A DNA stretch of 64,000 bases from the IMG/VR virus record IMGVR_UViG_3300021093_000041, positions 15,814 to 79,813 of that record. The stretch is one strand, 5' to 3'. Both the position numbers and the translations under genes were made by a program. This stretch comes from a virus. The notes under the pieces are model-generated. The model was not told where the DNA came from and made no database searches. It saw only the letters and a list, made by a program, of their open reading frames with translations. Positions 36,152 to 64,000 of this stretch are shown here, in pieces. Positions within the stretch are counted from its first letter, which is position 1. Each line of letters starts with the position of its first letter.

Positions 36152-36211
36152 TTACCGAGAGTCGTGGTAAAATAATTCGATCGAAATTTGTCATGCAGAC
36201 TAAATATTTAC

Positions 36212-36694
36212 ATGACAAAAATAGAACTAAAATGTTCCATTTGTACCAAAATATCACATAAATGGCCGTATGAATATAGGGCTATAAAAAATACAGAACA
36301 TTATAAATGTAAAAAATGTAAACGAATTAATTACGAAACAAGACAGTGCCCGTCATGTTTGAAACAGTTTAATACCCCTTCAAAAAGTAAAAAGATTACT
36401 TGTTCGTATAAATGCTCTAACAAAATATTTAGAACCGGGCCCAATAATGGTAATTGGAAGCATGATGTATATAGAAGTACTTGTTTTTACTACCATAAAA
36501 AAGAATGTATTATTTGTAAAGAATGCAATATTGTAGCAGTTCACCATTACGATATGAATCATAATAATAACAACCCTTGCAATTTAATACCTTTATGCCC
36601 CACTCATCATCAATATATGCATAGTAAATTTCATATTGAAATAAAGGATCAAGTCGATAAATATATACGTAATTTTAAACTCGGGTTCGCCTAG
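36212..36694 (+). CDS. Zn-finger HNH endonuclease (free-standing homing endonuclease candidate)
   Basis: Several CxxC pairs, GPNNGNWK, VHHYDMNHNNNNPCNLIPLCPTHHQYMH; TAAATA 5 nt before ATG 36212. Confidence 0.82.
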   Translation: MTKIELKCSICTKISHKWPYEYRAIKNTEHYKCKKCKRINYETRQCPSCLKQFNTPSKSKKITCSYKCSNKIFRTGPNNGNWKHDVYRSTCFYYHKKECIICKECNIVAVHHYDMNHNNNNPCNLIPLCPTHHQYMHSKFHIEIKDQVDKYIRNFKLGFA

Positions 36695-36757
36695 CTTGGT
36701 ATGGCACCACATTTGGGATGTGGAATAACGTGAGTTCAAATCTCGCACCCGAGACCA
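36680..36757 (+). tRNA. tRNA-Pro(UGG)
   Basis: CTCGGGT/ACCCGAG acceptor, CCACA-ttTGGga-TGTGG, GTTCAAATC, CCA. Confidence 0.93.
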
Positions 36758-36785
36758 TTTTTGTTCTTTAAAAATTTGATCATTA

Positions 36786-36899
36786 GTGATATAGAATTGT
36801 AAAACACCTCCAGTCTGGGGGAGGAGAAGGCTGAAGTTGACGAGATAGACATATGGAACACAGTGAAATCCTCGTATATTCGCAGGCCGTGGTCATCCA
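36786..36899 (+). ncRNA. Candidate structured ncRNA or degenerate tRNA-like element
   Basis: GC-richer island between tRNAs with CCTCC/GGAGG and ACGAG/CTCGT stems, ending in CCA; no canonical T-arm. Confidence 0.4.
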
Positions 36900-36907
36900 A
36901 TTTAAAT

Positions 36908-36982
36908 GGGCTGGTAGTGATAATGGTAGCACGGGAGCTTTGCAAGCTTTAGGTAGGAGTTCGATTCTCCTCCGGTCCACCA
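36908..36982 (+). tRNA. tRNA-Ala(UGC)
   Basis: GGGCTGG/CCGGTCC with G3:U70, GGAGC-ttTGCaa-GCTTT, GTTCGATTC, CCA. Confidence 0.95.
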
Positions 36983-36988
36983 ATTGAA

Positions 36989-37063
36989 GCGGGTATGATG
37001 TAGTGGCTAGCCTGGAACCTTGCCAAGGTTTACGTGTCGGTTCGATTCCGACTACCCGCTCCA
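36989..37063 (+). tRNA. tRNA-Gly(GCC)
   Basis: GCGGGTA/TACCCGC, U73, GAACC-ttGCCaa-GGTTT, GGTTCGATTCC, CCA. Confidence 0.95.
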
Positions 37064-37078
37064 GTTCTTTTACATTAT

Positions 37079-37454
37079 GGGGATGTACTGGTTTCGATTT
37101 AATAGTTGATATAAACTAGGCATGTAGAGGATGATAGTTGGCCTCTTTAATCACCTGTCAAAAAAGTAACTACTGAAATAGTTGCCGAATACGACTATTC
37201 GTTTGAGGACGAAGAAGTCGCAATCGCAGCCTGAATCTGCGACATCTATTATATAGATACCTAATATATGTAATAGGTGTATATTATTAGGTTAGATTGT
37301 TATTATTATTGTATATAGCAATTAAAACTTACAATATAGATAATATACGGTTTGTTAATTCATAATATATTGTTTAAATTTAAAATTAACTAAGCATGTA
37401 GTCTGGTTATTGAACCTATTAAAGACAGGGGTTCAACTCCCCTCATCTCCACCA
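37079..37454 (+). ncRNA. ssrA: tmRNA
   Basis: 5' GGGGATGTACTGGTTTCGA, 3' GACAGGGGTTCAACTCCCCTCATCTCCACCA; GCATGTAG; ATAGTT-GCC resume context; tag AEYDYSFEDEEVAIAA* (37184-37234). Confidence 0.93.
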
Positions 37455-37459
37455 ATTTA

Positions 37460-37548
37460 GGGTAGATGGCTGAGTGGTTTAAGGCAATTGACTTGAAATC
37501 AATCGTAGTTAATAGCTACCGGGGGTTCAAATCCCTCTCTACCCGCCA
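37460..37548 (+). tRNA. tRNA-Ser(UGA)
   Basis: GGGTAGA/TCTACCC, ATTGA-ctTGAaa-TCAAT, long variable arm GTAGT/GCTAC, G73, CCA. Confidence 0.95.
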
Positions 37549-43703: not shown

Positions 43704-44645
43704 ATGGCTGAAATTGATAATACAAATGTATCAAAAGTGTTAGGACGTATTGTAGATTACCCTCAAAACTACGATAAGAGTATCCTAGTACGTGAACCTA
43801 GACAAAGTAATAGAGTTCATTTAAACATTGCTGACGACATACCACCTTTTATAGGGTATGATGTGTGGAATGCATATGAGGTGAGTGCATTAACAATCAA
43901 AGGCTTACCTGTTGCAGGTATACTTAAAATTGTTTACAAAGCAACTAATAATTATATTGTTGAGAGTAAAAGTTTGAAGCTCTACCTTAACAGTTTTAAT
44001 ATGTTTAAAGTCGGTGAGACTTCTGAACAAACAATTTACTTTATTGAAAAAACTGTTGAGGCTGATCTATCTACATTGTTGGAAACAACAGTTAAGTGTA
44101 GATTTTATACTACCACTGAGGTTAATAATTTTATTAAAAATGGTTATGAAATGGATCATTGTTGGCATGCATTTCCAACAATTGAAAACCGTTTTAATTT
44201 GGATGATGTGGAAATTACTCAATTTCAAGAAGATAAAACTTTACTAACATCTATGTTTCAGTATAAAAGTGCTGAACCTAAATCATTACCTATACAAGCA
44301 TATCATAGTAGTTTACTCAAGAGTAACTGCAGAGTTACACGTCAACCTGATTGGGGTGATGTCTTTATTGAAATGCAAGCACAAGATGCAATCGATCCAA
44401 TTGGTCTTGCAAAGTATATTGTATCATTTAGAGATGAATGCCATTTTCACGAAGAAATTTGTGAAACAATTTTCAAAAGATTGTATGATCGTTTCCAACC
44501 TTATTCATTAATGGTTAAATGTCTTTATACCAGACGTGGTGGTATTGATATTTGCCCTATACGTGCAACTAAAAATTACACGTTATTGGATAAATCACCA
44601 TTTGTTGATATAGATGTACCTTACTGTAAAACCCCTCGACAGTAA
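43704..44645 (+). CDS. queF: NADPH-dependent preQ0 reductase QueF (bimodular type)
   Basis: DVWNAYEVS, IVESKSLKLYLNSF, LLKSNCRVTRQPDWG, FHEEICE, YTRRGGIDI. Confidence 0.93.
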   Translation: MAEIDNTNVSKVLGRIVDYPQNYDKSILVREPRQSNRVHLNIADDIPPFIGYDVWNAYEVSALTIKGLPVAGILKIVYKATNNYIVESKSLKLYLNSFNMFKVGETSEQTIYFIEKTVEADLSTLLETTVKCRFYTTTEVNNFIKNGYEMDHCWHAFPTIENRFNLDDVEITQFQEDKTLLTSMFQYKSAEPKSLPIQAYHSSLLKSNCRVTRQPDWGDVFIEMQAQDAIDPIGLAKYIVSFRDECHFHEEICETIFKRLYDRFQPYSLMVKCLYTRRGGIDICPIRATKNYTLLDKSPFVDIDVPYCKTPRQ

Positions 44646-50916: not shown

Positions 50917-53900
50917 TTAAACCATAGGAGTTAGTAAAACAGTTGTGGTATTATTTGGATTGAACGTATTCCAAGTTGCCCCATCTGTTGAGCTCCAATA
51001 CTTATTGAGTATTTTATTCTTAATAACAACCGTAGGTATTGGTACATTGTTTACAGTTATATTGAATGCATCTATTTCCCATGCAAGTATATTTGTTGAA
51101 TTGACACCATAATTAAATGGTGCAAACTGACCATTTTTAAGCCAATCAGTTTCAGGTAAATTATCTATATAAACTGGTTGACCCCAAACTGAAGTGTCAA
51201 TTTGTTTAACGTAATTGATATTACCAGCTTCGGTTGATGTAGGTGGTGTTGTAGGGTTGAATAACGATGAATTTAAAGGGATTTTTAAAACATATAAACC
51301 AGTCGTTTGCGTTTCATTACTCAAAACAGCGTAATATTGATCAGTTGGTTTAGGGCTTGGTATACCCATTGTTTTAAATCCACGCATTAACAAATAAACA
51401 TTATCATTTAATAATGTGCAATCTATTGGTTGAAAATCGTAATTTTCACCTACATCGACAAATCGTAAATTTGTATTTTTTCTATATACGTTAAATGTAA
51501 AATTACCGTTACTTTGTTTTTTTACAATAATTTCATCAATTAAATATGTTGCTGGTGTTGTAATTAAATTACCAGATTGATCTGTGAATTTAAACAATGG
51601 CCAATTAGAATTGTACAATTTGAATACAAAATTGTAAAAATAATTTTTAATAGGTGTAAACCACATTATTATATTATCATTAATTTTTTTAAGTTTCGTC
51701 GATGCATTTATAAACCGTTTGGCAATCCCGCCAGGTGGCCTTAAAATCGCATTATTGTATGAAAATGTTGCTATAATATTATTAGCATTATTTTGATTTG
51801 TAGGTTGACCACCAGATATTGGCCAATCAACTGGCATTGTAGTACCGTTGTAGTAAAGACCTGATTGCGGGTACATTAAAAACCCAGGGTTACCCACTAC
51901 AAATGTTCTTATACCGTTTGCAGCAGTATTATTAACTCTACAATAATCCCATGTAAACATGTCCGATAATGGGTTTAAACCTGTCGGTGTGTTATTGTTG
52001 CTTACCTGCACTTTTATTTTATTTTGAAATTGACTATAATTTGCAATGTAATTTTCTGTTTCACGAGACATTTTTAAATTATAAATTGGTGTTATAGTTG
52101 GTATAACGACATCAACCGGTGTTGTTTGCACCGGGTTATCAACAATAGTTGTAGGTGTTGTAGGTGTTGTTGGTGTCGTGGGTGTAGTAGGTGTTGTAGG
52201 TGTTGTAGGTTGATTAAAAATATTTGGTGTTATAGGCACTACAGTAGGTGGTGCCACTATCGGGGTTACGCTATTATCTAATGTTGTAGATAAAGGTACT
52301 ATTACCGAAACATTTGAGTCTATAACTTTGTAACTTGTTGTATTAGTTGTAGATGGCACAACACTCGGAGCTTGGTAGCCCTCTACAACAATACCCTTAC
52401 CTGCTTGAGATAATATAATACTATTAAAAGTGTTAGGATTAGTAATAGAAAATTGTTCGGTCATAACAAACCCACGAGGTAAATTTGTTATATTTGAAGT
52501 TGATGGTAATATAATAGTATTAAAATTGACATTTACATCATTAGATATTGATTGTAAAGCGAGTTCTATAAGACTATAAAATTGTGTTATGACTCTATTG
52601 ATAGTACTATTGGTCATTATTTCGTTTTCACCAATATAATAATCTTTTGTTTCGATAATTAAAAGTTTAGATAATGCTTCGTTGTTTAAATATTCTAGTT
52701 CTCTAAACACCTTAGAATTTAAACTGGTTCCTATATTTAAATCATATACAGGTCTAAGAGCTATATTACTTAAAAGTTTATAAAAATTATAAAAAAGTTT
52801 TTTAAAGGTTTTATTATAAACAAGAAATGTTTGTAATTCATTACTGTTAATAGTGAGTTCATCGAAAGTATATATATTAAAATCACTATTGGCAAGAAGG
52901 TTGTTGTAATTTACTGTTTCAATAAATTTGACAATTAACCCAAAACCGTTTGAACTATATGTGTAAACATAGTCTTCGTTATCTAAACTAACTACATTTA
53001 AAGATGAAATGTTAGGAATTAATTCAGTAAAGTAACCGATTTGTGAATAATTAGTTATATTAAACTTATATAAATTTTTGTTAGTTGAAATATAAGCAAT
53101 AAAATCAGTTGTAGGGGATTGATTAAATGTGGTTAATATCTCATTAGTGGTGTTGAAACTTAAGTTAACTAAAAATTTAGGTACAAAAGAAGCCGGGTCT
53201 AAAATTACAATATTGTTAATTCTATATGTATTTTGATTACCTATTATAGAATAACTACACAATAACGTAACAGTAAATATACCGTTGTAAACATATTTAC
53301 TAAATGGTTTTACTGAAGATATAAATGGGTATAATTTACCAAGAGTCTTTAAATTGAATCTTCTAAGAAAATTTAAATTTAAATCATATATTTTTAATGT
53401 TAAATTATTTCTATCATAAACATATAATTCATTATTGTATTCAAATTGTAATTCAGGGTAAGAAAATTGTGTTATATCACTTGCAGATCCTGAACCACCT
53501 ATACAACCCTCAACAATAAATCTATCACTATTGATAGGGTTATTACCAATAAACCCGCTTACGTCAACATAGTAAACAGAATCGTAATAACCTTCACCTA
53601 TATATAATTTTTCACCAACAAGTAAAATAGACGTGATTTGTTGGAAGTTAATGTCACGACGATAACCTAATGTATTAGAACTGTATACTAAAGATATACC
53701 ACTGTTGTTTTCATTAAAAACAAATATTCTTGTAGCTGATGCACAAAAAATAACATTTGTATTTGTATACGGATTGTACCCAACTTGCATATCTACCAGG
53801 TTATCCATACCAGCAGATAATTTTGAATAGAAAGAAAATCTAGTAAAGTTTTCAGATGTAGTAGACTCAGATAAACTTGTAATACCACTGTTACTTGTAA

Positions 53901-54492
53901 ACGTAGATGTAGTGAAAAATATATTATTAGGATTGGTGGTGAAACTTTTATTTAACGATGTTGATGGTTTACCAGTTAATGAAACCGTGTAACCAGTGGC
54001 TGTAGAAAGCGGTGTATTACCTGTAAATAAATTATTAGGTAATGAGGTTAATGCATCTACATAACTAAAAGCTAATTGCTCTGGAGTTGTAATTGATGAA
54101 AGCTGTATTGCGATACTATAATTTTCAATATACCTATTAACAGTAAATGTAATAACACCTTTTGGTAAAACGGTGTTTAAATTTTCAGTGTTTATATCAG
54201 TAATTGTTAAAAATGTCAAATCACTGTTTTGTTGATTACCGATATATAACGGTTGATTGGTTGGGAAATTGTTATCAATAGTGAAACATTTACTATACAA
54301 ATATAGGTAATTTAAATATAATCCTGATAAGCAATTGTTTATAGTTGATGATATAGCTTGATAGTTTTCATTTGAATTTATTAAGCATTGCTCTAATGCA
54401 ACAGGCAATTCTATCTCACTATTAACTGTTAAATTACCTGTTCTGTTTTTAGGCAAATCATATGATGTCAACTCCGATGAAATACTATTCAT
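50917..54492 (-). CDS. Large putative virion structural protein with NHL-like propeller segment and PTT linker
   Basis: 1191 aa, N/T/S-rich; GGSGSASDITQFSYP..ELYVYDRNN; (PTT)7. Confidence 0.55.
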   Translation of the reverse strand: MNSISSELTSYDLPKNRTGNLTVNSEIELPVALEQCLINSNENYQAISSTINNCLSGLYLNYLYLYSKCFTIDNNFPTNQPLYIGNQQNSDLTFLTITDINTENLNTVLPKGVITFTVNRYIENYSIAIQLSSITTPEQLAFSYVDALTSLPNNLFTGNTPLSTATGYTVSLTGKPSTSLNKSFTTNPNNIFFTTSTFTSNSGITSLSESTTSENFTRFSFYSKLSAGMDNLVDMQVGYNPYTNTNVIFCASATRIFVFNENNSGISLVYSSNTLGYRRDINFQQITSILLVGEKLYIGEGYYDSVYYVDVSGFIGNNPINSDRFIVEGCIGGSGSASDITQFSYPELQFEYNNELYVYDRNNLTLKIYDLNLNFLRRFNLKTLGKLYPFISSVKPFSKYVYNGIFTVTLLCSYSIIGNQNTYRINNIVILDPASFVPKFLVNLSFNTTNEILTTFNQSPTTDFIAYISTNKNLYKFNITNYSQIGYFTELIPNISSLNVVSLDNEDYVYTYSSNGFGLIVKFIETVNYNNLLANSDFNIYTFDELTINSNELQTFLVYNKTFKKLFYNFYKLLSNIALRPVYDLNIGTSLNSKVFRELEYLNNEALSKLLIIETKDYYIGENEIMTNSTINRVITQFYSLIELALQSISNDVNVNFNTIILPSTSNITNLPRGFVMTEQFSITNPNTFNSIILSQAGKGIVVEGYQAPSVVPSTTNTTSYKVIDSNVSVIVPLSTTLDNSVTPIVAPPTVVPITPNIFNQPTTPTTPTTPTTPTTPTTPTTIVDNPVQTTPVDVVIPTITPIYNLKMSRETENYIANYSQFQNKIKVQVSNNNTPTGLNPLSDMFTWDYCRVNNTAANGIRTFVVGNPGFLMYPQSGLYYNGTTMPVDWPISGGQPTNQNNANNIIATFSYNNAILRPPGGIAKRFINASTKLKKINDNIIMWFTPIKNYFYNFVFKLYNSNWPLFKFTDQSGNLITTPATYLIDEIIVKKQSNGNFTFNVYRKNTNLRFVDVGENYDFQPIDCTLLNDNVYLLMRGFKTMGIPSPKPTDQYYAVLSNETQTTGLYVLKIPLNSSLFNPTTPPTSTEAGNINYVKQIDTSVWGQPVYIDNLPETDWLKNGQFAPFNYGVNSTNILAWEIDAFNITVNNVPIPTVVIKNKILNKYWSSTDGATWNTFNPNNTTTVLLTPMV
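52147..52209 (-). repeat. (Pro-Thr-Thr)7 coding repeat
   Basis: Seven 9-nt units with synonymous variation. Confidence 0.9.
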
Positions 54493-57400
54493 GATAAGTA
54501 ATTGTATTTAATTCCGAACAACTTGGTTTGTTCTTATTAATTACATCTATAAAGGATACATTCAATATCTCTTCTAGAGTAGCGCTTACAGGTAAATCAA
54601 CAACTTCAACATTGAAATAATTTGACTTAGCACCCGGCACTTTAAACATAAAAAACTGTTGTATTGTTTCCACAAAATTACGTTTATTAACCGGTAATTG
54701 AAATTTAACATCACTTATCGGATAGTTTTGCCTTAAATGTAACAGCATATTGTAATATGATAATGCTGTATTGTATATGTATAAATTTTTGAATGGTAAA
54801 GGTGTAGTAAAATAATAATTTGGTTTATCAATATACGAACCAAGTGTAAAGTTATTGTAATATATACAATTACCAGCCATAAATGGTATATTAAGTATAT
54901 TGCTAAATGAATATTGACCGCTTGGTACTAACGTTTGATTAACCTCTCTACCATCTATAAAAATAGAATAAACACCATTTACCGAGTCAAAACGTATTAC
55001 AAAATTATGATAACCTGGTTCGAGAGTTGATACTTCGATAACGTTTCTTACAAGTAAAACATCTGTATTGTTAAAAATATTTGGTAGACCTAATCTAAAC
55101 TCAAATTTACCTTCACCGTTTAAATTACTTAAAGTAAAGTTATAATTAGAGAGATTTGGAGCACATATACCAATCGTATTGTTAAAATCTATTGTATTAA
55201 AAACATTAATGGTATTACTTACAATTTTATTAGTACGTACTAAAACTGTTTTAACATTTGCAGGGTCATATACACCGAAAACTAAACCTTCATCTGCTAT
55301 ACCGTTACTGTTAAAATTGCGTATATAATCTATGCTTTGAACCACCACACCAGATAAACTCGGTTGATCAGTAAACAATTTTACTGGAAACCCATTAGAT
55401 GTTTTGATATTGTAAAATTCATCTGATAGTAATAATTTATTATTATCGAAAACAACATATAGTGCACCGTTTTCATTAACTACATAATCGTTTATCAATG
55501 TGCATTCATAAATTACGGTAAGCGTGCTTGTGCTTATATCATACGAACAAAGGTTTTGTATTGTGTCATCACTACTAATAAAAAATATTTTATTATCGAG
55601 TATCTTAACATTTATACCAGGTACGGTATATAGAATGTCTTTATATGAAATTAAAGTGTTGATATACGATAACGTGCCTACTTTACCAGGTATTGAAATA
55701 GTATTAGTTGAGGATATTTCTTCGTAATCTAATGTAATGTTATCAATTTTTAAAGGTGGTAAAGTATTTGTGTAACAATATGTGTATTCTAGTGTAGAAT
55801 AAAATTGTGTGTAAAGATTAATATCAGGTATAATTTTTTTATCTACTATAACGCTATTGTAACTTATTAATGTTACATAGTTATCGCTAGTAATAGCAAT
55901 AGTATTACCTACAGGGTCTAATTTATTAACATATTTTATTGTCGTATTGCCTAATGATATGCTATCTAATAATTTTAAATCAGTGTTATAGCAGAATATT
56001 GTATTTTTGTTGTAACTTACAACAAAGGGTGTTACGTGTTGGTAGTTAAAAACACCTAAACCGTAATTGTTATAATTACCAAATATCTGATAACCTAACG
56101 GTTTGCTCCAGTCATTAGCATATAAATCAAAATTAATTGTAAAGTTATTAAAATCTTTAATTGCTGTAAATTGTGTGCTATCTAAAAATTTTGAATAGTA
56201 AGTAGGGCCAAGCACTATTTCATTAGATAAATTATCGTAAGGCTGATTTAAATAATCGTAAACAGTTGTGAAATATTTTTGAACAACATTTGCAGATAAC
56301 GAATCGATCAACTGTATAATGTTCTTTTCACCTAAATGTTGTATTGCATATTGTATACCAGGTTCGAACGTTAAATTGCTCAAAACATCATAAACAGGGT
56401 AATTGCTATTTACATTGTTTGCTGTTGAAACTTGTGTGAAATTAGTTGTGTAATTACTATTGATTGTAAACGATAATGCATCTACACCTGAAACCACTGA
56501 AGGGTTATAATATCTATCTACCCATACTGGTTCTGCAGATAATGAATTACCCCCTTTTAACCAACTACATAAATATGCACCAGTTGTTTCGGAATTATTT
56601 GTATTGAAAGGTATAGAAAAATATTCAAGTGTTTTGTGTTTGAAGACTTTATCTGAATTAATAGGTGTATCACCTGCTATACAACCCGAATTAACTAATG
56701 AAGAATCGTTTATATTAAGCTTTATAATTGGAAATGATTCATATGGGAAATAAAAGAATGTTATATTATCACTCTTAACAAGTAATTGAGTGGTTGTTGC
56801 ACTATAGGTGTTATTAAAATCAGGTGAACCTCTTAACTGGTTTGTTCCAGTATTAAGTGATGTATAATCTCGTTGTATAACACCATCAACATTTTGGTTG
56901 ATTATATTACCTCTACTTAAACTGTTTTTATCGTCTTTATCGTTTTTGAGAGGTAAAATATTTACAGGTATAGTATTATTATCCACCTTCTCGTTAGTGA
57001 AATTAAGGATATAGTTGAGCTTTACATTATCTACACTTCTATCGTTATTAACATTTAAGTTATCTAAATCAATTATTTGAGTATATGAGTACCAATCACT
57101 TGGTAATATAGGATTGTAATTATTATAACTGCGAGTTTTAAGTGCGCATGATGTATTAAATATATCACTACCTGATATAAAACCTGTCAAGGTTAACCAA
57201 TTATTTGTTGTATCATAACTAACGTACTTTTGCTCACCATTAACTAATTTATAGAGAACAAGTTGGTTTTTAACTGTATCGTACAAATAATTAAAAATAT
57301 TAACTTCATCATTTTGATATTCATATACCATTAAAAATTCACTGCTACCGGTGTTGCATTGAAAATATGATAAATAGTAATTTATACCGCTAATAGATTG

Positions 57401-57835
57401 TGTTATAGTGCATCTATCACTATCTAAAAGATTAACAGTGTAGTATTGATACTCATAATCAGTATCATATGTATCAAAACCTATTGTATAGGCAACCGTA
57501 TTTAATTGTGGTGTAAAATTAGTTTGTACTGTGAGCGATTTAGGTAAAATTTCACCACTTGTATATAAACCTAGATATGTTAAAAATGATTTAGGATATA
57601 CATCGATAGGTAATTCAATTTTAACTTTATCACCAACATTTGTTTTATTGGTTAGTACAAAATTGCTATAATAGTTATTTGAAGTATCTTTAGCACCAGA
57701 TAAAAAATCTACTATTGACACGTTAATACCCTCGTAGCTGATATAGTTTTGTGTTTCTATATCAATACTAGGGTCGTAACTATAATTAGCACTTACACCG
57801 TTAAAATAGGTGTTAGATAATGTTAAAACATCCAT
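54485..57835 (-). CDS. Large putative virion structural protein with LamG/concanavalin-like segment
   Basis: 1116 aa; FTINFDLY...GYHNFVIRFDSVNGVYSIFIDG...NLYIYNTAL. Confidence 0.55.
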   Translation of the reverse strand: MDVLTLSNTYFNGVSANYSYDPSIDIETQNYISYEGINVSIVDFLSGAKDTSNNYYSNFVLTNKTNVGDKVKIELPIDVYPKSFLTYLGLYTSGEILPKSLTVQTNFTPQLNTVAYTIGFDTYDTDYEYQYYTVNLLDSDRCTITQSISGINYYLSYFQCNTGSSEFLMVYEYQNDEVNIFNYLYDTVKNQLVLYKLVNGEQKYVSYDTTNNWLTLTGFISGSDIFNTSCALKTRSYNNYNPILPSDWYSYTQIIDLDNLNVNNDRSVDNVKLNYILNFTNEKVDNNTIPVNILPLKNDKDDKNSLSRGNIINQNVDGVIQRDYTSLNTGTNQLRGSPDFNNTYSATTTQLLVKSDNITFFYFPYESFPIIKLNINDSSLVNSGCIAGDTPINSDKVFKHKTLEYFSIPFNTNNSETTGAYLCSWLKGGNSLSAEPVWVDRYYNPSVVSGVDALSFTINSNYTTNFTQVSTANNVNSNYPVYDVLSNLTFEPGIQYAIQHLGEKNIIQLIDSLSANVVQKYFTTVYDYLNQPYDNLSNEIVLGPTYYSKFLDSTQFTAIKDFNNFTINFDLYANDWSKPLGYQIFGNYNNYGLGVFNYQHVTPFVVSYNKNTIFCYNTDLKLLDSISLGNTTIKYVNKLDPVGNTIAITSDNYVTLISYNSVIVDKKIIPDINLYTQFYSTLEYTYCYTNTLPPLKIDNITLDYEEISSTNTISIPGKVGTLSYINTLISYKDILYTVPGINVKILDNKIFFISSDDTIQNLCSYDISTSTLTVIYECTLINDYVVNENGALYVVFDNNKLLLSDEFYNIKTSNGFPVKLFTDQPSLSGVVVQSIDYIRNFNSNGIADEGLVFGVYDPANVKTVLVRTNKIVSNTINVFNTIDFNNTIGICAPNLSNYNFTLSNLNGEGKFEFRLGLPNIFNNTDVLLVRNVIEVSTLEPGYHNFVIRFDSVNGVYSIFIDGREVNQTLVPSGQYSFSNILNIPFMAGNCIYYNNFTLGSYIDKPNYYFTTPLPFKNLYIYNTALSYYNMLLHLRQNYPISDVKFQLPVNKRNFVETIQQFFMFKVPGAKSNYFNVEVVDLPVSATLEEILNVSFIDVINKNKPSCSELNTITYHE

Positions 57836-57848
57836 CTACAATATTTAT

Positions 57849-60341
57849 TCAAGACTCCTTGCGAGCATTACCATCATAATGGTCAAATCTATGATGTGTT
57901 ATTGGAGATGCTAACAATAACCCACTGTTTATAACACCTTTTTTAGTTTGTTGGTATATATAAGACATCCATGTTTGCTCGAAAGGGTGATCCCATTTAT
58001 CAGTTAAAAACATTTTTCTATTACCTTCTTTTGATACTAATTGTGGCCAATTGCAATAGTATATTTCTCCATCCACATACGGTAACCCTTCCATACAATA
58101 AATATGTTTAAATTTAGTTTTAGGAGCATATGGGTCTAAACCTTGTGCGGGTAAATATGGTTTTTCCGGAAAATTTTCAATTCGGTACTCACCTGGTACA
58201 TTATACCATGCCCATTGAGTTTTATTATCACCGTAAAATTCAGTAAAACAAAACTTTAAAAAGTCGTAACCGTGTGTTTCACATATTTTATGCACTTTAT
58301 CGTAAAGATTAGGTATATAAGTTTGAAAACCATTTGCACACGACCCTAAAGATGAATTGTTCAAATTCATATCATCTTCGAGGAAAATACAATAATCAGC
58401 ATCTGATGCATCAAAGTGCTCAGCTATGAATTGTCTACCACCACAAATACCTAAATTATCCTTTTTAATATGTTCGAAATTATACTCTTTACAAATTTCA
58501 ACGTACTCTGCTGTTGTATTCAAATTGGTAGAATTATCTAATACGTATCTTCTGCTATGTGTAAAGAATCCAGGTTCTTTACTATATGTTTCACAAAGAC
58601 GTCTAAATTGTTTTGGAGAGTTGAAAGTAATGACATATAAATTAGTTTTAAGTTCATTTACCGGTCTAACCCTGCGGTTACCTATTAACTTAACTTGATT
58701 GTTTTTTAAATTTTCAAAAAATGTTCCAATTAAACCGTCATCATCAATCATTGCACGATCAACTAATTCTGGGTATTTATGTGCAATAATTGTAAAAATA
58801 CTCTCTTCTGTACCCATTAAACCCTTACTTAATGAATCGCTCAGTAATGAGTAATAAATTTCGTTAACTTGTTTAATAAAATTTTTATTACCACCAAAAA
58901 CCCCACCTCTACATACATATGATATTTTATCGCAATTTGCATAATCACGCATAGCACTTTCCGGGAAACCATGTATTTCGTAGTTTGAATACGGGAATGC
59001 TATATATAAAAACTTTTGTAGAAGAGTTTCTATTTTATCTAAAACTTTATCATGCGTAAAATAACCGGGATGTACAGTATTTGTAATACCTGCATCTAAC
59101 CACAAATAATAATCTGTTTCAAAACTATTGTAAACTGCAGCATCATTGAGTAAAAACAATTTAGACATTACAATAGGGTTGTACATGTCGAGATTAGCTT
59201 GTGTACTCTCTTCCAACCACGAAGCAATTTTTCTCCATTCTGGATTATTTCTAATTTCTTGAACCCTATTATAAAATGCAAACCAAGTTTTTAACTCTTC
59301 AACTTCTTTAACAAATACTCTAGTTGTTACGCTTGGTCTTCTAGCTTCAATATATGGGACCAACTTTGCTTCTGTAAAAATAATCATTGGTTCCTCAATA
59401 CGTAATAACTCGTCAAATTTTTCTAAATACGTCTCAAATGATCTTTTAAAAGTACCACTACATGTATCACGTTTAATATCCCACAACCCAGTTACTATTG
59501 TAACGTTCTTCTTCTTAGGTAATTCGGTTACAATATATTCATTAGTATCAATATCATCATCTACATTTTGAGGTATATAGACTGTCTTATACACACATTG
59601 TGCTATTTCACTCCAACGTTTATTTTTACGTAAAAAATCAATATGATCGTTACAAACAGCTAACATATCCTGATTTTCAAACTTGTTAGCTGAATAATTA
59701 TTATCTTCAAACAGTTTAAATAAAGCATTAAGTTCTTCTTCAGGTAAGTTGCTTATTTCAACCTTGAAAATTTTAGGTCTATACTTATCAAATTGAAATT
59801 TAGATAATATCTTATAATCGTAGCCTTCAGTATCGCATTGCACATAGTCAATACGTTCAATATTAAACTGACTACAAAGTTTATCTATAGTTGTAACTTT
59901 AATAGATGTTAAAACCCCATATTTATCTAATATTTGTTTTGTTATTGGATCTGTTTCAAATCCGTTTTTTGGTGGGTATATACAACTCATACCCTTAATT
60001 GCAGGGTCTAAGTTATTTGTTTCAATTACAGCATTAGGTATATAGACAAACTCCACTTCACCGTCTTTATCGCTTAAACCAAATTCAGCAATTTCCGCAC
60101 GGTTTAAACTTATTTGTGTCTTATATGTTTTCTTTAAAGACTCAATATGATCTGGTAATGGTTCAACCAATAAGGTTTTCCAACCATATCCTATTGTATA
60201 ACCTGAAAGAGTGTCGTTTTCAATACCATCATTAGCACCAATTATTAAGGTAAATATATCATTACCATGTATTTTAAATGTGTTGCGTAACGATACGTCA
60301 AATAATCTATGTAATTGTAACGGGGTGAATATATGTTTCAT
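57849..60341 (-). CDS. Fusion: FkbM methyltransferase + HtrL/YibB-like glycosyltransferase + GT-A-like domain
   Basis: IGANDG..VEP..IDYVQCDTEGYD (FkbM); TIVTGLWDIKR..SKLFLL..YLWLDAG..GTEE (HtrL-like); YVITFNS..LDNS..GICGGR..FLEDD (GT-A). Confidence 0.75.
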   Translation of the reverse strand: MKHIFTPLQLHRLFDVSLRNTFKIHGNDIFTLIIGANDGIENDTLSGYTIGYGWKTLLVEPLPDHIESLKKTYKTQISLNRAEIAEFGLSDKDGEVEFVYIPNAVIETNNLDPAIKGMSCIYPPKNGFETDPITKQILDKYGVLTSIKVTTIDKLCSQFNIERIDYVQCDTEGYDYKILSKFQFDKYRPKIFKVEISNLPEEELNALFKLFEDNNYSANKFENQDMLAVCNDHIDFLRKNKRWSEIAQCVYKTVYIPQNVDDDIDTNEYIVTELPKKKNVTIVTGLWDIKRDTCSGTFKRSFETYLEKFDELLRIEEPMIIFTEAKLVPYIEARRPSVTTRVFVKEVEELKTWFAFYNRVQEIRNNPEWRKIASWLEESTQANLDMYNPIVMSKLFLLNDAAVYNSFETDYYLWLDAGITNTVHPGYFTHDKVLDKIETLLQKFLYIAFPYSNYEIHGFPESAMRDYANCDKISYVCRGGVFGGNKNFIKQVNEIYYSLLSDSLSKGLMGTEESIFTIIAHKYPELVDRAMIDDDGLIGTFFENLKNNQVKLIGNRRVRPVNELKTNLYVITFNSPKQFRRLCETYSKEPGFFTHSRRYVLDNSTNLNTTAEYVEICKEYNFEHIKKDNLGICGGRQFIAEHFDASDADYCIFLEDDMNLNNSSLGSCANGFQTYIPNLYDKVHKICETHGYDFLKFCFTEFYGDNKTQWAWYNVPGEYRIENFPEKPYLPAQGLDPYAPKTKFKHIYCMEGLPYVDGEIYYCNWPQLVSKEGNRKMFLTDKWDHPFEQTWMSYIYQQTKKGVINSGLLLASPITHHRFDHYDGNARKES

Positions 60342-60342
60342 A

Positions 60343-61662
60343 TTATGGTAAATTAATTTCTACAGGGCCAATCTTATTACACCAACCGGTATCTTTTCTA
60401 TGTGGCCAAACAGTCCAGCTTATCGGTCTCTTGTCTGAGCAAAATTTTAAAAAGAAACTACAATTAGGTTTTGCAAGTTCTTCGTGTAATCTAAAACCTG
60501 TTAAATCATCTCTAAACACCTCTTCCCCATTTTCATCATGAGCACCTACATACCAAAAATCATAAAGATTATTATCATCTAATGCTACAGATTTACCATC
60601 AACCCAAATATCTACGCACCAGTTTCTACCTAATGCTTTGTAATAATCTTCTTTTGTTGGGTATAAGTTAGGGTTATCTTTCCAATTTGGAGTGGGTGCT
60701 TCAAGTTTTTCGGGCCATGTATATGGGTGTACTTTACGTTCATTAAACTTTAACCCTGCGTATAACTCATAATCTTCTAATGACCGTATTGATCCAAAAA
60801 AGTATTTTTCAAAATTAATATCACGCTCTTCACCATCCATTCCAAATAATTTACGGTTACGTAAATGGCTACGGTCATTAGCGTTTAACCAGTTTTCTTC
60901 AAATTTTCTCTTATCTATATCTGTATCTTCCCAGTGTTTGGGTCTACCTTTTCTTGTGTATTCATGCCATGCTATAACTTTATGTGGGTGAAATAAATCG
61001 TACCCCCATGTATAAGCACGAGCTGCAATACTTATTTCTTCACCGTGAAAATAGTAATTTGGATCATGTTGAACTTCTTTACAAAAAGAACCTAATGTAA
61101 ATGTACAATGTGCACTATAAAATCTAGCACGCATTGGCTCCACACGTGTTTGATAGTCTGGGATTGTTGCAGGTAAAAAGAAAATAGCTCCTTCAGGTAT
61201 AAATCTATCAAACTCCATGAACCAAGGGTCTGGTTGTCGTGCAGCTGGGTCATTGTCGGGATCAAAAGAAGAAGTGTATGCGGTCAATAAAGGTTTTTCA
61301 TACCCCATATTTTGCAATTGTTTAACCATATCAATTGCAATAGTGTCCCAACCTTTATTGAATCTCATATGAGAATCTATTTGAAAAGTATACTTTTCAT
61401 CTTTATAGTGTTGTTGAACTAAATTTCTAGCCCAGCAAACACCTTTACTTTTATTCCATTCTATATCAACAATTCTAAATCTCGGGTCAGACCTATATTT
61501 ATCTACATTGTCAAACCCATCTCCTTCTTTAAATTGTCTTGCTATACCAAAACGTAGATTTTGAGGATTGTTGGCATTTTGTAAACAATCCTCAATTGTA
61601 GGTATAAGTTGTGGGTCTCTATATGATGCAATTTGAATATAAATTGTATCGTCAATCGTCAT
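60343..61662 (-). CDS. GT60-family (Gnt1-like) polypeptide GlcNAc transferase, paralogue 2
   Basis: IYIQIASYRDP, KGVCWAR, QIDSHMRF..GWD, FHGEEI.IAARAYTWGYDLFHP, HEY. Confidence 0.82.
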   Translation of the reverse strand: MTIDDTIYIQIASYRDPQLIPTIEDCLQNANNPQNLRFGIARQFKEGDGFDNVDKYRSDPRFRIVDIEWNKSKGVCWARNLVQQHYKDEKYTFQIDSHMRFNKGWDTIAIDMVKQLQNMGYEKPLLTAYTSSFDPDNDPAARQPDPWFMEFDRFIPEGAIFFLPATIPDYQTRVEPMRARFYSAHCTFTLGSFCKEVQHDPNYYFHGEEISIAARAYTWGYDLFHPHKVIAWHEYTRKGRPKHWEDTDIDKRKFEENWLNANDRSHLRNRKLFGMDGEERDINFEKYFFGSIRSLEDYELYAGLKFNERKVHPYTWPEKLEAPTPNWKDNPNLYPTKEDYYKALGRNWCVDIWVDGKSVALDDNNLYDFWYVGAHDENGEEVFRDDLTGFRLHEELAKPNCSFFLKFCSDKRPISWTVWPHRKDTGWCNKIGPVEINLP

Positions 61663-61675
61663 AATAGTATATACA

Positions 61676-62953
61676 TTAGACTGGATTTATATCCACAGTA
61701 ATTTTATCAAGCCAATTACCGTCTCTATCCATAGGCCAAACAACGTATTTAGCAGGTTTTACGTTGCTATAAACACCTAATGGCCATCGGTATGCATATG
61801 TATCCTGTGTGCATGACATTATTTCAGTCATCTGTTTACCACATACATCTAAACGAGCTAACTCATTATCGTTTTCATCTTGTACCGCACAATACCAGAA
61901 TGTGTATTCTTTGTCCGCAGGTATTTCTGTACGCGGTACAAAGAAATCAATACACCAGTTTCTCTTCCACTCTTTGTCTGGTTGATTTTTATAATCATAA
62001 GTAGGTGTAATATTTTGTATTACATCATCTGTTACCGACCTTAATTTAAAATTAATACCTGAATATTTTTCATACTCTTCAACTGTTCTTATATTACCAA
62101 AACCAAATTCACCGAAATTTATCTGGTTAGGGTCTTCACCATCCATTCCAAATAATATACGGTTACGTTTATGACACATTTCATTTACTTCCCACCAATC
62201 GTATTTTCTACCATCTTTCTTGTTACAATCATCCCAATGGTGAGGTCTACCTTTACGAGTATATTCGTGGTAACATATTATTTCATTTGGATGGAATAAA
62301 TCATAACCATGTGTGAATGTGCGTACAGCGATACTTATTTCCTCACCGTGAAAATAATAATTTGGGTCATGCGCTACTTCATCGCACATTTTACCTAAAG
62401 TGAAACTAAAATGTGCGCTATAAAATCTAGATGGGATTGGTTCTAATAATTCAGCACCGGTCATTGATGTTGGTAAAAAGAAAATAGCTCCTTCAGGTAT
62501 AAATCTATCAAACACCATTTTCCATGGATCTCTTTCTCTACCAAACGGGTCGTTGTCTGGGTTAAAACTTGTAGTGTAAGCTGTTAGTAAAGGTTTTTCA
62601 TGTCCTTTTTCTTGCAAAAGTTTAATCATGTTTATACATTTTTCATCCCAATCTTGCACAAATCTCATATGGGAGTCGATAGCTAATGTATATTCTTCTT
62701 CGCAGTATAGATGTTGAATCATATGACGAGCCCAGCATGTACCCTTACCTTTCCTTGCATCAACATCTATAATGTTAAATCTTTTATCTGTTTTATAATC
62801 GTCTAAATTATCCCATTCATCATCTAGATTATGTTGCCAACAAATAGCAAATCTTAAATTTTCTGGATATTTTGCTCTATCTATACAATCTTTAATAGTT
62901 TTTCTAAGTTCTGGATCTCTATAGGCTGCTATTTGAATGAATATCCTACTCAT
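61676..62953 (-). CDS. GT60-family (Gnt1-like) polypeptide GlcNAc transferase, paralogue 1
   Basis: IFIQIAAYRDP, KGTCWAR, IDSHMRFVQDWD, FHGEEI.IAVRTFTHGYDLFHP, GFGNIRTVEEYEKYSGINF. Confidence 0.82.
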   Translation of the reverse strand: MSRIFIQIAAYRDPELRKTIKDCIDRAKYPENLRFAICWQHNLDDEWDNLDDYKTDKRFNIIDVDARKGKGTCWARHMIQHLYCEEEYTLAIDSHMRFVQDWDEKCINMIKLLQEKGHEKPLLTAYTTSFNPDNDPFGRERDPWKMVFDRFIPEGAIFFLPTSMTGAELLEPIPSRFYSAHFSFTLGKMCDEVAHDPNYYFHGEEISIAVRTFTHGYDLFHPNEIICYHEYTRKGRPHHWDDCNKKDGRKYDWWEVNEMCHKRNRILFGMDGEDPNQINFGEFGFGNIRTVEEYEKYSGINFKLRSVTDDVIQNITPTYDYKNQPDKEWKRNWCIDFFVPRTEIPADKEYTFWYCAVQDENDNELARLDVCGKQMTEIMSCTQDTYAYRWPLGVYSNVKPAKYVVWPMDRDGNWLDKITVDINPV

Positions 62954-63087
62954 TCAAACATTTAGTTATGCAATGTAAATAATCAATTATATATATATAT
63001 TACCGGGTCTCAACCATTCTGGTGCACTCATTATTTGTGATATTTCTGCAAATGTATGGTGTTATAAATACAATTTTATCTATTTAA

Positions 63088-63999
63088 CTAATAACCGTAT
63101 CTACCTTTTACTACATCAAAATTTTGAGTTACTTGTGCAGCAGTTAAAGCTGAACTGTAAACTCTAGCAATAGATATGTATCTATTTGTATCAGAACCCC
63201 ATGCCGCTGCGAATCCGCTATTATACCCACCACCATTATGAATACCTTTAAATTGCCCACCAACTACGATTTTAGTGTTTAATGTGTCATAAATTATATT
63301 TCCAGAAACAGCCGTTGAAGAAGCTCTTTCCGTACCGTTGACATACATTCTTAACGTTGTTCCATCGTATGTACCGAGAATGTGATACCATGTATTTATT
63401 GCAAGAGTTGGATTGTTACCAGCACCTGCAAGACCGATTCCACCACTACTAAATACATATACACCAAATCTACCATCAACATATTTTAAACCATAACTTA
63501 AATCTTCACCGTTACCTTTTTGCACGGTAATTATTCCAAAATTATTTGAACCTGGAACAGAACTACCTGTATTTACCCATGATTCTATAGATATTGATGT
63601 AACTTTTAACGATGTTGATAAAGTACCTGTAGCGTAGATATTTTGATATAGGTTTACATAACCACCATTTGAAGATGAATATGTAGGAGCTGAAGTAAAT
63701 GTCACATCGTTGTCATTTGTGGTAAGGTCATTCCATGCTGTACCAGAGCCAGAATAACTAGATGATTGGCCAATATCTAAATTCATTACTAAATTACCAC
63801 TAACTATTGCAGGTGTGCTTGTTCTAGTTTTAGTAGGTGTTTGAGTGCGAGTTCTTGTATTAGTAGCTGTTCTCGTTCTTGTATTTGTAGGTGTTCTTGT
63901 CCGGGTTGGTGTTTGAGTCTGTGTTGGTGTTTGTGTTCTTGTTCTTGTGTTGGTAGCTGTTCTTGTTTGTGTGGGTGTTTGTGTTTGAGTCGATGTTTG
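63088..63999 (-). CDS. LamG-domain virion protein with (Thr-X)n stalk; N-terminus lies beyond the window
   Basis: Frame is open past the track's Met (63786) to the window end; LVMNLDIGQSSSYSGSGTAWNDL, WYHILGTYDGTTLRMYVNG, ARVYSSALT. Confidence 0.8.
   Translation of the reverse strand, partial: QTSTQTQTPTQTRTATNTRTRTQTPTQTQTPTRTRTPTNTRTRTATNTRTRTQTPTKTRTSTPAIVSGNLVMNLDIGQSSSYSGSGTAWNDLTTNDNDVTFTSAPTYSSSNGGYVNLYQNIYATGTLSTSLKVTSISIESWVNTGSSVPGSNNFGIITVQKGNGEDLSYGLKYVDGRFGVYVFSSGGIGLAGAGNNPTLAINTWYHILGTYDGTTLRMYVNGTERASSTAVSGNIIYDTLNTKIVVGGQFKGIHNGGGYNSGFAAAWGSDTNRYISIARVYSSALTAAQVTQNFDVVKGRYGY
63814..63999 (-). repeat. At least 31 consecutive X-Thr dipeptides (X = R,Q,P,N,A,S,K)
   Basis: QTSTQTQTPTQTRTATNTRTRTQTPTQTQTPTRTRTPTNTRTRTATNTRTRTQTPTKTRTST. 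Confidence 0.92.
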
Positions 64000-64000
64000 A

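Follow-up and report, generated by a model that had tools for sequence, protein, structure and literature searches.

A phage GT60 glycosyltransferase cassette beside a Thr-X repeat gene, a candidate for O-glycosylation of phage Thr-repeat proteins

The window, which is the whole analysed stretch of 64,000 nucleotides of DNA from an uncultured lake-water T4-like phage, carries towards one end a compact group of minus-strand genes. As the original prediction had described, this group comprises a Thr-X LamG protein, two GT60-like genes, an FkbM-HtrL-GT-A fusion and a (PTT)7 tract, each lying where it had been placed:

63088..63999, (-) strand: ORF of a Thr-X repeat/LamG protein, presumed acceptor (PF13385; PHROG matches to virion structural protein families)
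63811..63999, (-) strand: coding repeat (Thr-X)31, the presumed stalk (Thr count and tandem repeats)
63130..63615, (-) strand: Laminin_G_3 (concanavalin-A-like) tip domain (PF13385, residues 129-290, E 7e-15)
62986..63013, (-) strand: sigma-70-like promoter match TTGAGA-16-TATAAT, 11/12, in the 134-bp gap ahead of GT60a (consensus match only)
61676..62953, (-) strand: GT60a, PF11397 polypeptide-HexNAc-transferase-like, with a beta-rich C-terminal domain of ~115 aa (Pfam E 4e-68)
60343..61662, (-) strand: GT60b, paralog of GT60a (PF11397 'Glycosyltransferase (GlcNAc)', E 2.5e-65)
57849..60341, (-) strand: fusion gene of Methyltransf_21/FkbM, HtrL_YibB and a GT-A-fold C-terminal part of 275 residues
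59694..60242, (-) strand: FkbM-type SAM methyltransferase domain of the fusion (PF05050, residues 34-216, E 7e-17, 62.6 bits, cut-off 22.7)
58758..59507, (-) strand: HtrL_YibB domain of the fusion, GT-A fold (PF09612, residues 279-528, E 2e-17, 64 bits, cut-off 24.1)
57855..58676, (-) strand: third domain of the fusion, GT-A glycosyltransferase (residues 556-829; structural model and E-D-D-M motif)
54485..57835, (-) strand: ORF of 1116 aa with no family match, starting 13 bp past the fusion (syntenic in relatives; weak LamG-like lead only)
50917..54492, (-) strand: ORF of 1191 aa with (PTT)7, possible second acceptor (ORF and tandem repeat)

The ORF of the Thr-X LamG protein is open at its 5' end because the source contig stops at window base 64000. 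Within residues 1-64, Thr occupies 31 of the 32 alternate positions, with R (10), Q (8), P (6), N (3), S (2), A (2) and K (1) as the X residues of the (Thr-X)31 stretch, and a chance origin of 31 alternating Thr in a row is impossible. The corresponding DNA is formed by tandem repeats with periods of 6, 18, 24 and 66; lake-metagenome contigs end within it, and the summed depth there is about 100-fold relative to the flanks. Thr-X proteins of related loci have fibre-like or Ig-like N-termini followed by varied tips, such as LamG, P-domain and RCC1.

Regarding the genes past the fusion, the 1191-aa ORF overlaps the 1116-aa ORF by 8 bp and contains (PTT)7, encoded at 52148-52210 by a tandem repeat (9 bp x 7.0), with head-tail connector genes close behind. 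The intergenic gaps from GT60a through the head-closure gene range from -8 to 39 bp, the cassette being located within a close-packed, co-directional and operon-like gene run terminated by head-tail connector genes. The fusion had been predicted to be followed by large virion genes; the ORFs are indeed large and close-packed, one of them bearing (PTT)7, but both gave zero Pfam, PHROG or phage-database matches, and it is their position that suggests that they may have a virion role. A T4-type late promoter was not found ahead of the cassette, where the best upstream match is the sigma-70-like one, and sigma-70-like consensus sites show no enrichment over shuffles.

This gene context bears on an extremely improbable explanation, in which the glycosyltransferases hypermodify phage DNA by placing sugars on hydroxymethylated bases, allowing restriction escape. 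Many phage glycosyltransferases do so, GT-A folds among them, according to a preprint on DNA glycosyltransferases (bioRxiv 10.1101/2023.12.21.572611). No base-hydroxymethylating enzyme was found in the 80-kb fragment, but as only 37% of the genome is in hand, such genes could sit in the rest. However, PF11397/GT60 is not mentioned in that preprint, and the genes belong to a run ending in head-tail connector genes. Besides, a thymidylate-synthase-family gene (possible hydroxymethylase) is absent from four of five complete GT60-bearing phage genomes, and Tet/JBP matched none of the five in a search run without a positive control. Modification of DNA would also explain neither the linkage to Thr-X genes nor the homologs in bacterial chromosomes, as can be seen below.

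Both GT60 proteins match PF11397 with high scores (GT60a 230.9 bits and GT60b 221.7 bits, cut-off 21) over HMM positions 2-51 and 96-350 of 352, and the predicted assignments to this family, to HtrL_YibB and to Methyltransf_21 all hold far above their cut-offs. The paralogs are 48-49% identical, and the two-copy arrangement is kept in the relatives L005-L008. Both genes encode the motifs A(A/S)YRDP, DSHMRF and FHGEE; D93-S94-H95, FHGEE 201-205 and H229-E-Y (GT60a numbering) are invariant among 30 homologs and both window paralogs, every invariant residue being present in GT60b. The AF2 model of GT60a (pLDDT 91.7) has a GT-A core and, together with the alignment, indicates that the enzyme adopts the GT-A fold and keeps a D-x-H motif for metal binding. 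GT27 ppGalNAc-transferases fill the first 29 places among its structural matches (Z 19.3-22.5; 263-285 residues aligned at rmsd 3.3-4.0), while the next GT-A enzymes outside GT27 reach Z 17.5 or less, making GalNAc-T1, T2, T4, T7, T10 and T12 and Toxoplasma GalNAc-T3 the closest solved structures by a clear margin.

GT27 enzymes use D-x-H and a later His for Mn2+, carry a G-E-N/E-x-E-I-S type motif and act on dense Thr/Ser tracts. Unlike them, GT60a has neither a membrane anchor nor a detected ricin-type lectin domain, and with only 11-14% identity it falls outside GT27 by sequence. Pfam finds PF11397 alone in the GT60 proteins, the beta-rich C-terminal 115 residues being unassigned, and hydropathy indicates no membrane segment in GT60a, GT60b or the fusion, the GT60 maximum over 19 residues being 0.96. 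The protist members of GT60 are alpha-GlcNAc-transferases, including Dictyostelium Gnt1, acting on the hydroxyproline of Skp1, and the mucin-type initiators of Dictyostelium and Trypanosoma cruzi. They share with the window proteins the Pfam family, the GT-A fold and D-x-H; the soluble window GT60 resembles the cytoplasmic Gnt1, and protist mucins offer Thr-rich repeats as acceptors, as presumed here. Meanwhile, the window GT60 differs in being viral/bacterial, in its extra C-terminal domain and in having an HtrL-GT-A partner in most loci. Because no prokaryotic member of PF11397/GT60 has been solved or assayed to our knowledge, and no solved GT60 chain was recovered from the PDB by sequence or profile search, donor and acceptor are read by analogy with fold and family. 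Following this analogy, GT60a and GT60b may transfer alpha-GlcNAc from UDP-GlcNAc as retaining enzymes, and a polypeptide Thr/Ser/Hyp acceptor is indirectly suggested by the linkage to Thr-X genes and by nearest folds that are polypeptide transferases.

Two GT-A domains, both bearing an acidic metal-binding motif, share a single chain in the fusion model (pLDDT 86.7). The HtrL domain, from a family for which we know of no assayed function, is structurally closest to the blood-group transferases of GT6 and to BoGT6a (Z 13.4-13.6, rmsd 3.1-3.7, ~190-205 residues), and W414 and D416 of its W-x-D are invariant among homologs. The third domain resembles B4GALNT1, POMGNT1, GnT-I and RmlT (Z 14-15.6, rmsd ~3.3, 185-205 residues), with E655-D656-D657-M658 also invariant among homologs. 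Both domains align one by one to solved GT-A enzymes, and as a pair they match, in Foldseek whole-chain comparison (E 1e-10 to 1e-7), the tandem-GT-A enzymes LH3, Mimivirus R699, LARGE1, K4CP, ColGalT1 and PmHS2; the domain orientation of LARGE1/K4CP/PmHS2/LH3-type enzymes is, however, unlike that of the fusion, with rmsd ~18 when both domains are aligned. A far-reaching reading, considered doubtful, would take HtrL-GT-A as a LARGE1/chondroitin-polymerase-like dual transferase that assembles, on Thr primed by GT60, a polysaccharide of repeating units with methyl, carbamoyl or sulfo tailoring, giving proteoglycan-like 'mucin' fibres in large aquatic phages and in bacteria of several phyla, with this viral and prokaryotic PF11397 clade as the nearest living relative of eukaryotic mucin-type initiators.

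In another explanation, the cassette would act during infection to remodel a host glycan (LPS core, capsule or teichoic-like polymer) or make a free polysaccharide, serving for instance superinfection block or receptor masking. HtrL-family genes have been placed in bacterial LPS/LOS core loci in the literature, the third domain is also similar to WTA and polysaccharide transferases (RmlT, TarP, cellulose and hyaluronan synthases), and among upstream promoter matches the best one has the sigma-70 form used by the host. This role is nevertheless very unlikely, as the cassette is devoid of membrane segments and of lipid-carrier or export genes, the nearest folds of the initiator are polypeptide transferases, well apart from polysaccharide enzymes, and the linkage to Thr-X genes would be left unexplained.

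That linkage was assessed in 89 viral loci, reduced to 72 non-redundant clusters. A Thr-X protein is encoded just upstream of GT60 (rank -1) in 21 of 72 loci (29%) and at rank -2 in 10 of 67 (15%), compared to ~4% (38/935) at ranks of three or more upstream or two or more downstream. A Thr-X gene lies within 10 kb of GT60 in 46 of the 72 loci, with none that near in the other 26, and the closest relative, L005, whose GT60a is 79% identical, has no Thr-X gene within 6 kb. At the genome level, the DNA pattern (ACNNNN)9AC is present in 33 of 37 GT60-bearing viral records and in none of five cultured T4-like phages without a GT60 match (hypergeometric p ~1.5e-4); read backwards, it has 0 matches in 35 of the 37 records and nine in each of the other two. 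Conversely, 12 of 65 records with the pattern have PF11397, and Stenotrophomonas phage RAS14 gave zero matches to the stringent pattern. GT60 homologs in bacterial chromosomes adjoin (PT)n proteins. The co-occurrence proposed in the original prediction is thus borne out as a strong linkage in related phages. Considering the enzymes, HtrL is found in 75 of the 89 loci, the third domain (with HtrL) in 67 and the FkbM domain, fused or free, in 21; GT60 and HtrL-GT-A are a conserved cassette core, while carbamoyl-, sulfo- and methyltransferases and GT2/GT4 genes are accessory, differing from locus to locus.

The cultured Xanthomonas jumbo phage XacN1 encodes a GT60 protein (ORF334) with 45.5% identity, in a cassette with a carbamoyltransferase and a 546-aa gene where HtrL-GT-A would sit. 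Its genome has 122 Thr-X pattern matches (reversed control 0), those listed including large genes beside the tail sheath, and its Thr-X genes are dispersed, away from the cassette. One of its two glycosyltransferases belongs to PF11397/GT60, and the authors of the XacN1 study credited these two enzymes of the phage itself with the periodate-Schiff staining of virion bands, the identity of the stained proteins not being given and the connection to Thr-X not being made (PMC5852040). Virion glycosylation is also established in the mycobacteriophages Che8, Corndog and Myrna, according to Freeman et al. 2023 as cited in PMC12363180 and PMC12619734, where glycosyltransferases encoded by the phage modify its virion proteins within the cytoplasm of the host, as proposed here. 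Their targets, as cited in PMC12619734, are the C-termini of capsid and tail-tube subunits, differing from Thr-X stalks, and the hosts are Actinobacteria. The enzyme family differs as well, since a tblastn search of 50,697 phage records with GT60a found four jumbo phages only (Xanthomonas, Stenotrophomonas) and no mycobacteriophage; in a Che8-type (subcluster F1) genome, two glycosyltransferase genes do have an HtrL/YibB gene a few kb away. Consequently, the claim of an undescribed system needs narrowing, as the glycoprotein staining of XacN1 and the mycobacteriophage modifications were already known.

Those capsid and tail-tube targets illustrate how the enzymes might glycosylate other phage proteins, as the Thr-X and glycosyltransferase genes could merely cluster as neighbours in a variable accessory or fibre region. 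The loci where no Thr-X gene is near, L005 included, and the scattered Thr-X genes of XacN1 are consistent with this explanation, which is still unlikely, because the Thr-X enrichment is sharply positional, the linkage is seen genome-wide and beside (PT)n proteins in bacterial chromosomes too, and the GT60 fold is that of enzymes working on Thr/Ser-rich mucin tracts.

It is probable that the cassette O-glycosylates Thr-repeat proteins of the phage itself in the cytoplasm. The predicted glycosylation of Thr-rich stalks is the best-supported reading, considering the linkage, the GT27-like fold and the presence of two GT-A domains with a methyltransferase, though adjacency is not universal, as seen in L005. 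In the proposed mechanism, soluble GT60a and GT60b would put the first sugar on Thr hydroxyls, by family most likely a HexNAc from a UDP-sugar. The acceptors would be (Thr-X)n stretches, the upstream LamG protein being the first candidate and (PTT)7 within the 1191-aa ORF possibly another. Then, the HtrL-type and GT2/12/13-like GT-A domains of the fusion would lengthen the chain and the FkbM domain would O-methylate a sugar. The resulting stalk would be extended and hydrated, shielded from proteases or antibodies, and would present a binding domain. Donor sugar, acceptor, sequence of steps and benefit are inferred, as are the GlcNAc, the prime-extend-methyl-cap order and the stiff, protease-resistant, lectin-tipped fibre of the original prediction.

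A comparable design is found in the serine-rich repeat adhesins of Gram-positive cocci, in which GtfA/GtfB prime with O-HexNAc in the cytoplasm, followed by variable transferases that extend stepwise. Long (Ser/Thr-X)n dipeptide stalks present a binding domain there, like the proposed Thr-X stalk; however, the initiator is a GT-B (GT4) pair instead of a GT-A PF11397 enzyme, and the substrate leaves via accessory Sec, whereas the phage product would be freed by lysis, presumably in the virion. The chlorovirus PBCV-1 protein A064R is a multi-domain virus enzyme with glycosyltransferase domains and a sugar methyltransferase, acting on a virion protein independently of the host. Like the fusion, A064R and the giant-virus systems, whose fibril glycosylation is treated in a review (PMC9614988), join glycosyltransferase and methyltransferase domains, but they belong to eukaryotic viruses, their glycans are N-linked or atypically linked, and their domain families are unrelated.

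If the proposed O-glycosylation is true, mucin-type modification of proteins would be performed wholly by phage-encoded soluble enzymes and would be widespread, and the surfaces of large aquatic phages would be glycan-coated stalks with interchangeable binding tips. This would have consequences for adsorption, adherence to mucus or particles, protease and grazer resistance and the immune recognition of therapeutic jumbo phages. Moreover, simple soluble enzymes would become available with which to glycoengineer scaffolds of Thr repeats, and the origin of GT60/GT27 initiators could be studied with prokaryotes as a point of reference. The reading is open to direct test, with XacN1 and Xoo-sp13 in culture and XacN1 virion proteomics public. 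As for its spread, PF11397 has at least 598 matching stretches in IMG/VR and is found in more than 6,600 metagenome protein clusters, with 291 stretches confirmed in ~186,000 bacterial and archaeal species genomes.

The original prediction had placed a Thr-rich LamG protein, two GT60 genes and an FkbM-HtrL-GT-A fusion, followed by large virion genes, on the minus strand, and all of these elements are present there, as seen by ORF calling, Pfam and a repeat scan. The first 64 residues of the LamG ORF carry Thr at 31 of 32 alternate positions (Thr-X, X being mainly R, Q or P), and a gap of 134 bp separates it from GT60a. The GT60 assignment also holds, as both genes match PF11397 far over the cut-off in an HMM check; they are paralogs of 48-49% identity. 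The features are as follows:

63088-63999, minus strand: Thr-X LamG ORF, open at the contig end, Laminin_G_3 at the C-terminal
61676-62953, minus strand: GT60a, PF11397 with 231 bits against a cut-off of 21
60343-61662, minus strand: GT60b, PF11397 with 222 bits against a cut-off of 21
57849-60341, minus strand: fusion of 830 aa, starting one base after GT60b, with FkbM at residues 34-216 and HtrL_YibB at 279-528 (Pfam)
54485-57835, minus strand: 1116-aa ORF, 13 bp past the fusion
Gap of -8 bp to the 1116-aa ORF, minus strand: 1191-aa ORF, carrying (PTT)7

The (PTT)7 run is encoded by a 9-bp x 7 tandem repeat at 52148-52210, inside the 1191-aa ORF, and gaps of at most 39 bp continue past an ORF of 238 aa as far as the genes for the head-tail adaptor and head closure. 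Thus, the large genes and the repeat predicted after the cassette exist, whereas for their virion role it is position that speaks. Neither the 1116-aa nor the 1191-aa ORF has a match in Pfam, PHROGs or phage records (tblastn), and language-model atlas similarities of 0.80-0.84 for the two are leads only, including the weak one (0.84) of the 1116-aa ORF to phage LamG-domain clusters; the C-terminal third of this ORF looks like a domain of the concanavalin type, undetected by Pfam. Upstream of the cassette, the minus strand has no copy of the T4 late-promoter motif TATAAATA, nor is the motif enriched across the window, while terminator and promoter scans gave counts at or under shuffle levels.

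For the comparison between loci, a Thr-X protein was defined by at least 14 Thr on one alternating register in a 40-residue window, and the 89 viral loci were grouped into 72 clusters at 90% GT60 identity. Such a protein is encoded directly upstream of GT60 in 21/72 and two genes upstream in 10/67, against a background of about 4% (38/935) at ranks of three or more upstream or two or more downstream, and at least one lies inside 10 kb in 46 of the 72 loci. Some are very large, those from two of the closest viral loci (L006 and L007) exceeding 2,200 residues with 43% Thr. Considering whole records, the pattern (ACNNNN)9AC occurs in 33 of 37 GT60-bearing viral records, its reversed form being essentially absent, and in 0/5 of T4, KVP40, P-SSM2, HTVC008M and S-T4, where no GT60 match was found (hypergeometric p ~1.5e-4). 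When records were chosen solely by the Thr-X DNA pattern, PF11397 was present in 12/65, even though many of these 65 records are small fragments. The expected co-occurrence of GT60 with Thr-X genes is therefore recovered both by gene rank and by whole record. Phage proteins other than Thr-X could be the targets, which would fit the loci having no Thr-X gene nearby, but this is unlikely, being a misfit with such a sharp positional enrichment.

The Thr-X proteins do not form a single common family, having instead several recurrent N-terminal modules, one like a common tail-fibre N-terminus and others like small β-sandwich domains, and differing tips that include LamG, the proprotein-convertase P-domain and the RCC1 propeller. 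This architecture fits interchangeable binding heads on a shared stalk. For the window LamG protein, tblastn against the nine closest loci gave no homolog (E ≤ 1e-5), so conservation of the LamG tip does not track the cassette. Metagenome contigs all break within the Thr-X repeat, the 5' part of the LamG gene being absent from the assemblies, and in four lake-water runs the summed depth over the repeat (window 63896-64000) reaches ~1,400-2,300, compared to 3-20 on the single-copy flanks; many genomes in these lakes must then carry near-alike Thr-X coding DNA. The tract might instead be a plain linker that carries no sugar, or a Thr ladder of the antifreeze kind, readings less favoured here in view of the enzyme linkage.

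The GT60a model, built from a 30-sequence alignment (pLDDT 91.7, pTM 0.89), has polypeptide GalNAc-transferases as all of its best 29 structural matches (Z 19.3-22.5, rmsd 3.3-4.0 across 263-285 residues), among them human T1, T2, T4, T7, T10 and T12, Drosophila PGANT9 and Toxoplasma T3, while unrelated GT-A enzymes rank after them, with Z of 17.5 and lower. GT27 enzymes bind Mn2+ through a D-x-H motif and a His further along the chain, and their sugar site is lined by a motif of the G-E-N/E-x-E-I-S type. The residues D93-S94-H95, F-H-G-E-E (201-205) and H229-E-Y, invariant in the 30 homologs and both window paralogs, are those expected from these roles. After the catalytic core, a β-rich domain of ~115 residues is kept across the family. 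PDB chains were also searched by sequence and by profile, using GT60a, the fusion and the GT60 alignment A1, and gave no match. Both enzymes are PF11397/GT60 by sequence and neighbours of GT27 by structure, standing outside GT27 as they have neither its lectin domain nor a membrane anchor. Some metagenome contigs fuse the two paralogs at equivalent positions (window 60969-62288 and 61398-62835), omitting ~1.3-1.45 kb, at depths above that of the window phage; these may come from relatives that have just one GT60 copy or a recombinant one, although the matching sides are short (21-36 letters).

The fusion (model pLDDT 86.7) possesses two GT-A domains. The HtrL part is closest to GT6 enzymes (Z ~13.5), and the last 275 residues form a second one, with an invariant E-D-D-M, closest to B4GALNT1, POMGNT1, GnT-I and RmlT (Z 14-15.6). 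Together, they match tandem-GT-A enzymes such as LH3, Mimivirus R699, LARGE1, chondroitin polymerase, ColGalT1 and heparosan synthase. As no membrane-spanning hydrophobic segment is present in GT60a, GT60b or the fusion, any chemistry must take place in the host cytoplasm, where the phage structural proteins fold. A remodelling of the host envelope by the cassette would agree with HtrL being typically found in LPS loci, with the resemblance of the third domain of the fusion to polysaccharide enzymes and with a sigma-70-like promoter match; nevertheless, it is distinctly improbable, as the cassette has no membrane or carrier-lipid parts and its initiator is predicted to have a polypeptide-transferase fold.

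The best-supported reading, and a likely one, is that the phage O-glycosylates its own Thr-repeat proteins in the cytoplasm. The fold, motifs, solubility, packing, conserved partnership and Thr-X linkage are observed, while we infer the donor, acceptor, order of steps and benefit. Thr would be primed by the GT60 paralogs with an initial sugar, which the family suggests to be a HexNAc; the fusion would lengthen the glycan through its two GT-A domains, and its FkbM domain would place a methyl onto a sugar hydroxyl. It may be speculated, by analogy with GT27 isoforms, that the paralogs divide bare and pre-glycosylated tracts between them.

Regarding the wider family, clustering at 90% identity yields more than 6,600 GT60 clusters, mostly ~50% identical across the full 420 residues, and at least 598 IMG/VR stretches match it. 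The closest viral loci (L005-L008) share the order GT60a, GT60b, fusion, 1116-aa ORF and 1191-aa ORF. Of the 89 viral loci, 75 have an HtrL domain within 10 kb and 67 the third domain, nearly always joined in one two-domain protein of ~555 aa, often immediately before or after GT60; FkbM is found, free or fused, in only 21/89, and the additions in other loci are an O-carbamoyltransferase, a sulfotransferase, a class I methyltransferase, GT2 or GT4. These counts indicate a conserved core of GT60 and HtrL-GT-A with a swappable tailoring set, which is how glycan-building islands are organised. Among the viral loci, the most distant ones (41% identity) have GT60 followed by a protein whose C-terminal domain is of the crAss-type muzzle family (PF25729, E 4e-18; L011 11077-11871, L012 11005-11799), and no HtrL-GT-A partner is seen within the stretches covered.

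Bacterial genomes likewise contain full-length homologs (34-51% identity), on complete or large chromosomal contigs, including Ralstonia (L261, Ralstonia sp. 25C chromosome), Paraburkholderia (L292, P. ferrariae), Achromobacter (L269), Jiulongibacter (L242, J. sediminis), Gemmatimonadaceae and Vicinamibacterales. Often they are located a few kb away from proteins of 800-950 aa containing long (PT)n runs, or else immediately behind Thr-X proteins, accompanied by HtrL-GT-A genes; the Burkholderiaceae copies are without the C-terminal domain. Glycosylation of DNA by the cassette accounts for neither these bacterial homologs nor the Thr-X linkage. Although the contig represents only 37% of the genome, this role is highly improbable, as a gene of the thymidylate-synthase family is missing from four of the five complete genomes that carry GT60, and a paper on DNA glycosyltransferases (bioRxiv 10.1101/2023.12.21.572611) makes no mention of PF11397/GT60. 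A Tet/JBP family search gave zero matches anywhere, the controls also being without match.

Giant eukaryotic viruses make their own virion glycans. The nearest bacterial analogue in logic is the serine-rich repeat adhesins of Gram-positive cocci, whose systems have a GT-B initiator, unlike the GT-A GT60. In mycobacteriophages, phage-encoded virion glycosylation is established, as cited in PMC12363180 and PMC12619734; however, their glycosyltransferases are unrelated to the cassette enzymes and target the capsid and tail-tube C-termini, compared to the Thr-X proteins presumed here. Searches of the literature on GT60 in phages, Thr-rich phage glycoproteins and phage glycoproteomics yielded no account of the GT60/Thr-X pairing. 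Of the proposed undescribed system, this pairing in phages would be the new part, phage-encoded virion glycosylation being already known.

A GT60 gene is found in only four cultured phages, all of them jumbo phages (tblastn, phage records). In the Xanthomonas phage XacN1, it lies alongside a carbamoyltransferase and a 546-aa gene at the HtrL-GT-A position, and the genome has 122 Thr-X pattern matches (reversed control 0), those listed including ORF350, 369, 370 and 372 (by the tail sheath) and the 8.4-kb ORF384:

AP018399.1 272200-280671: ORF384, annotated as glycerophosphoryl diester phosphodiesterase, with Thr-X repeats
AP018399.1 249342-261711: ORF369-372, four large hypothetical genes, three with Thr-X (ORF369, 370 and 372)

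XacN1 virions show at least two periodate-Schiff-stained bands, the proteins behind them not being named, and its authors suggested the phage's own transferases as makers of the stained glycoproteins (PMC5852040). Public virion proteomics data exist for XacN1 (ProteomeXchange PXD008065). Of the papers found, that one comes closest to linking the GT60 family with phage Thr-X proteins, and ORF384, 369, 370 and 372 are, judging by their sequences, candidates for the stained bands. Thr-X repeats are also present in Xoo-sp13, while RAS14 has no match under the stringent pattern.

The window covers the final 64 kb of an IMG/VR contig of 79.8 kb (CheckV completeness ~37%), with a GC of ~32%, encoding a T4-type major capsid protein, prohead protease, tail sheath, head-closure and adaptor proteins and ribonucleotide reductase, as well as five clustered tRNA genes and a tmRNA carrying the tag AEYDYSFEDEEVAIAA (window 36078-37548). 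The capsid protein shares no more than ~34% identity with its counterpart in any cultured phage, megablast of the cassette region against phage records gave no match, and many lake-water metagenome runs contain near-identical DNA, with no RNA data set among the runs listed. The marker genes, capsid divergence and lake-water runs thus indicate that the phage is an uncultured one from freshwater, belonging to the T4-like group in its wider sense. A GTP cyclohydrolase gene (window 43704-44645, plus strand; phrog_5949, E 3.5e-70) is the lone plus-strand gene between the baseplate-hub-like and capsid genes; genes of this type can supply 7-deazaguanine DNA modification pathways.
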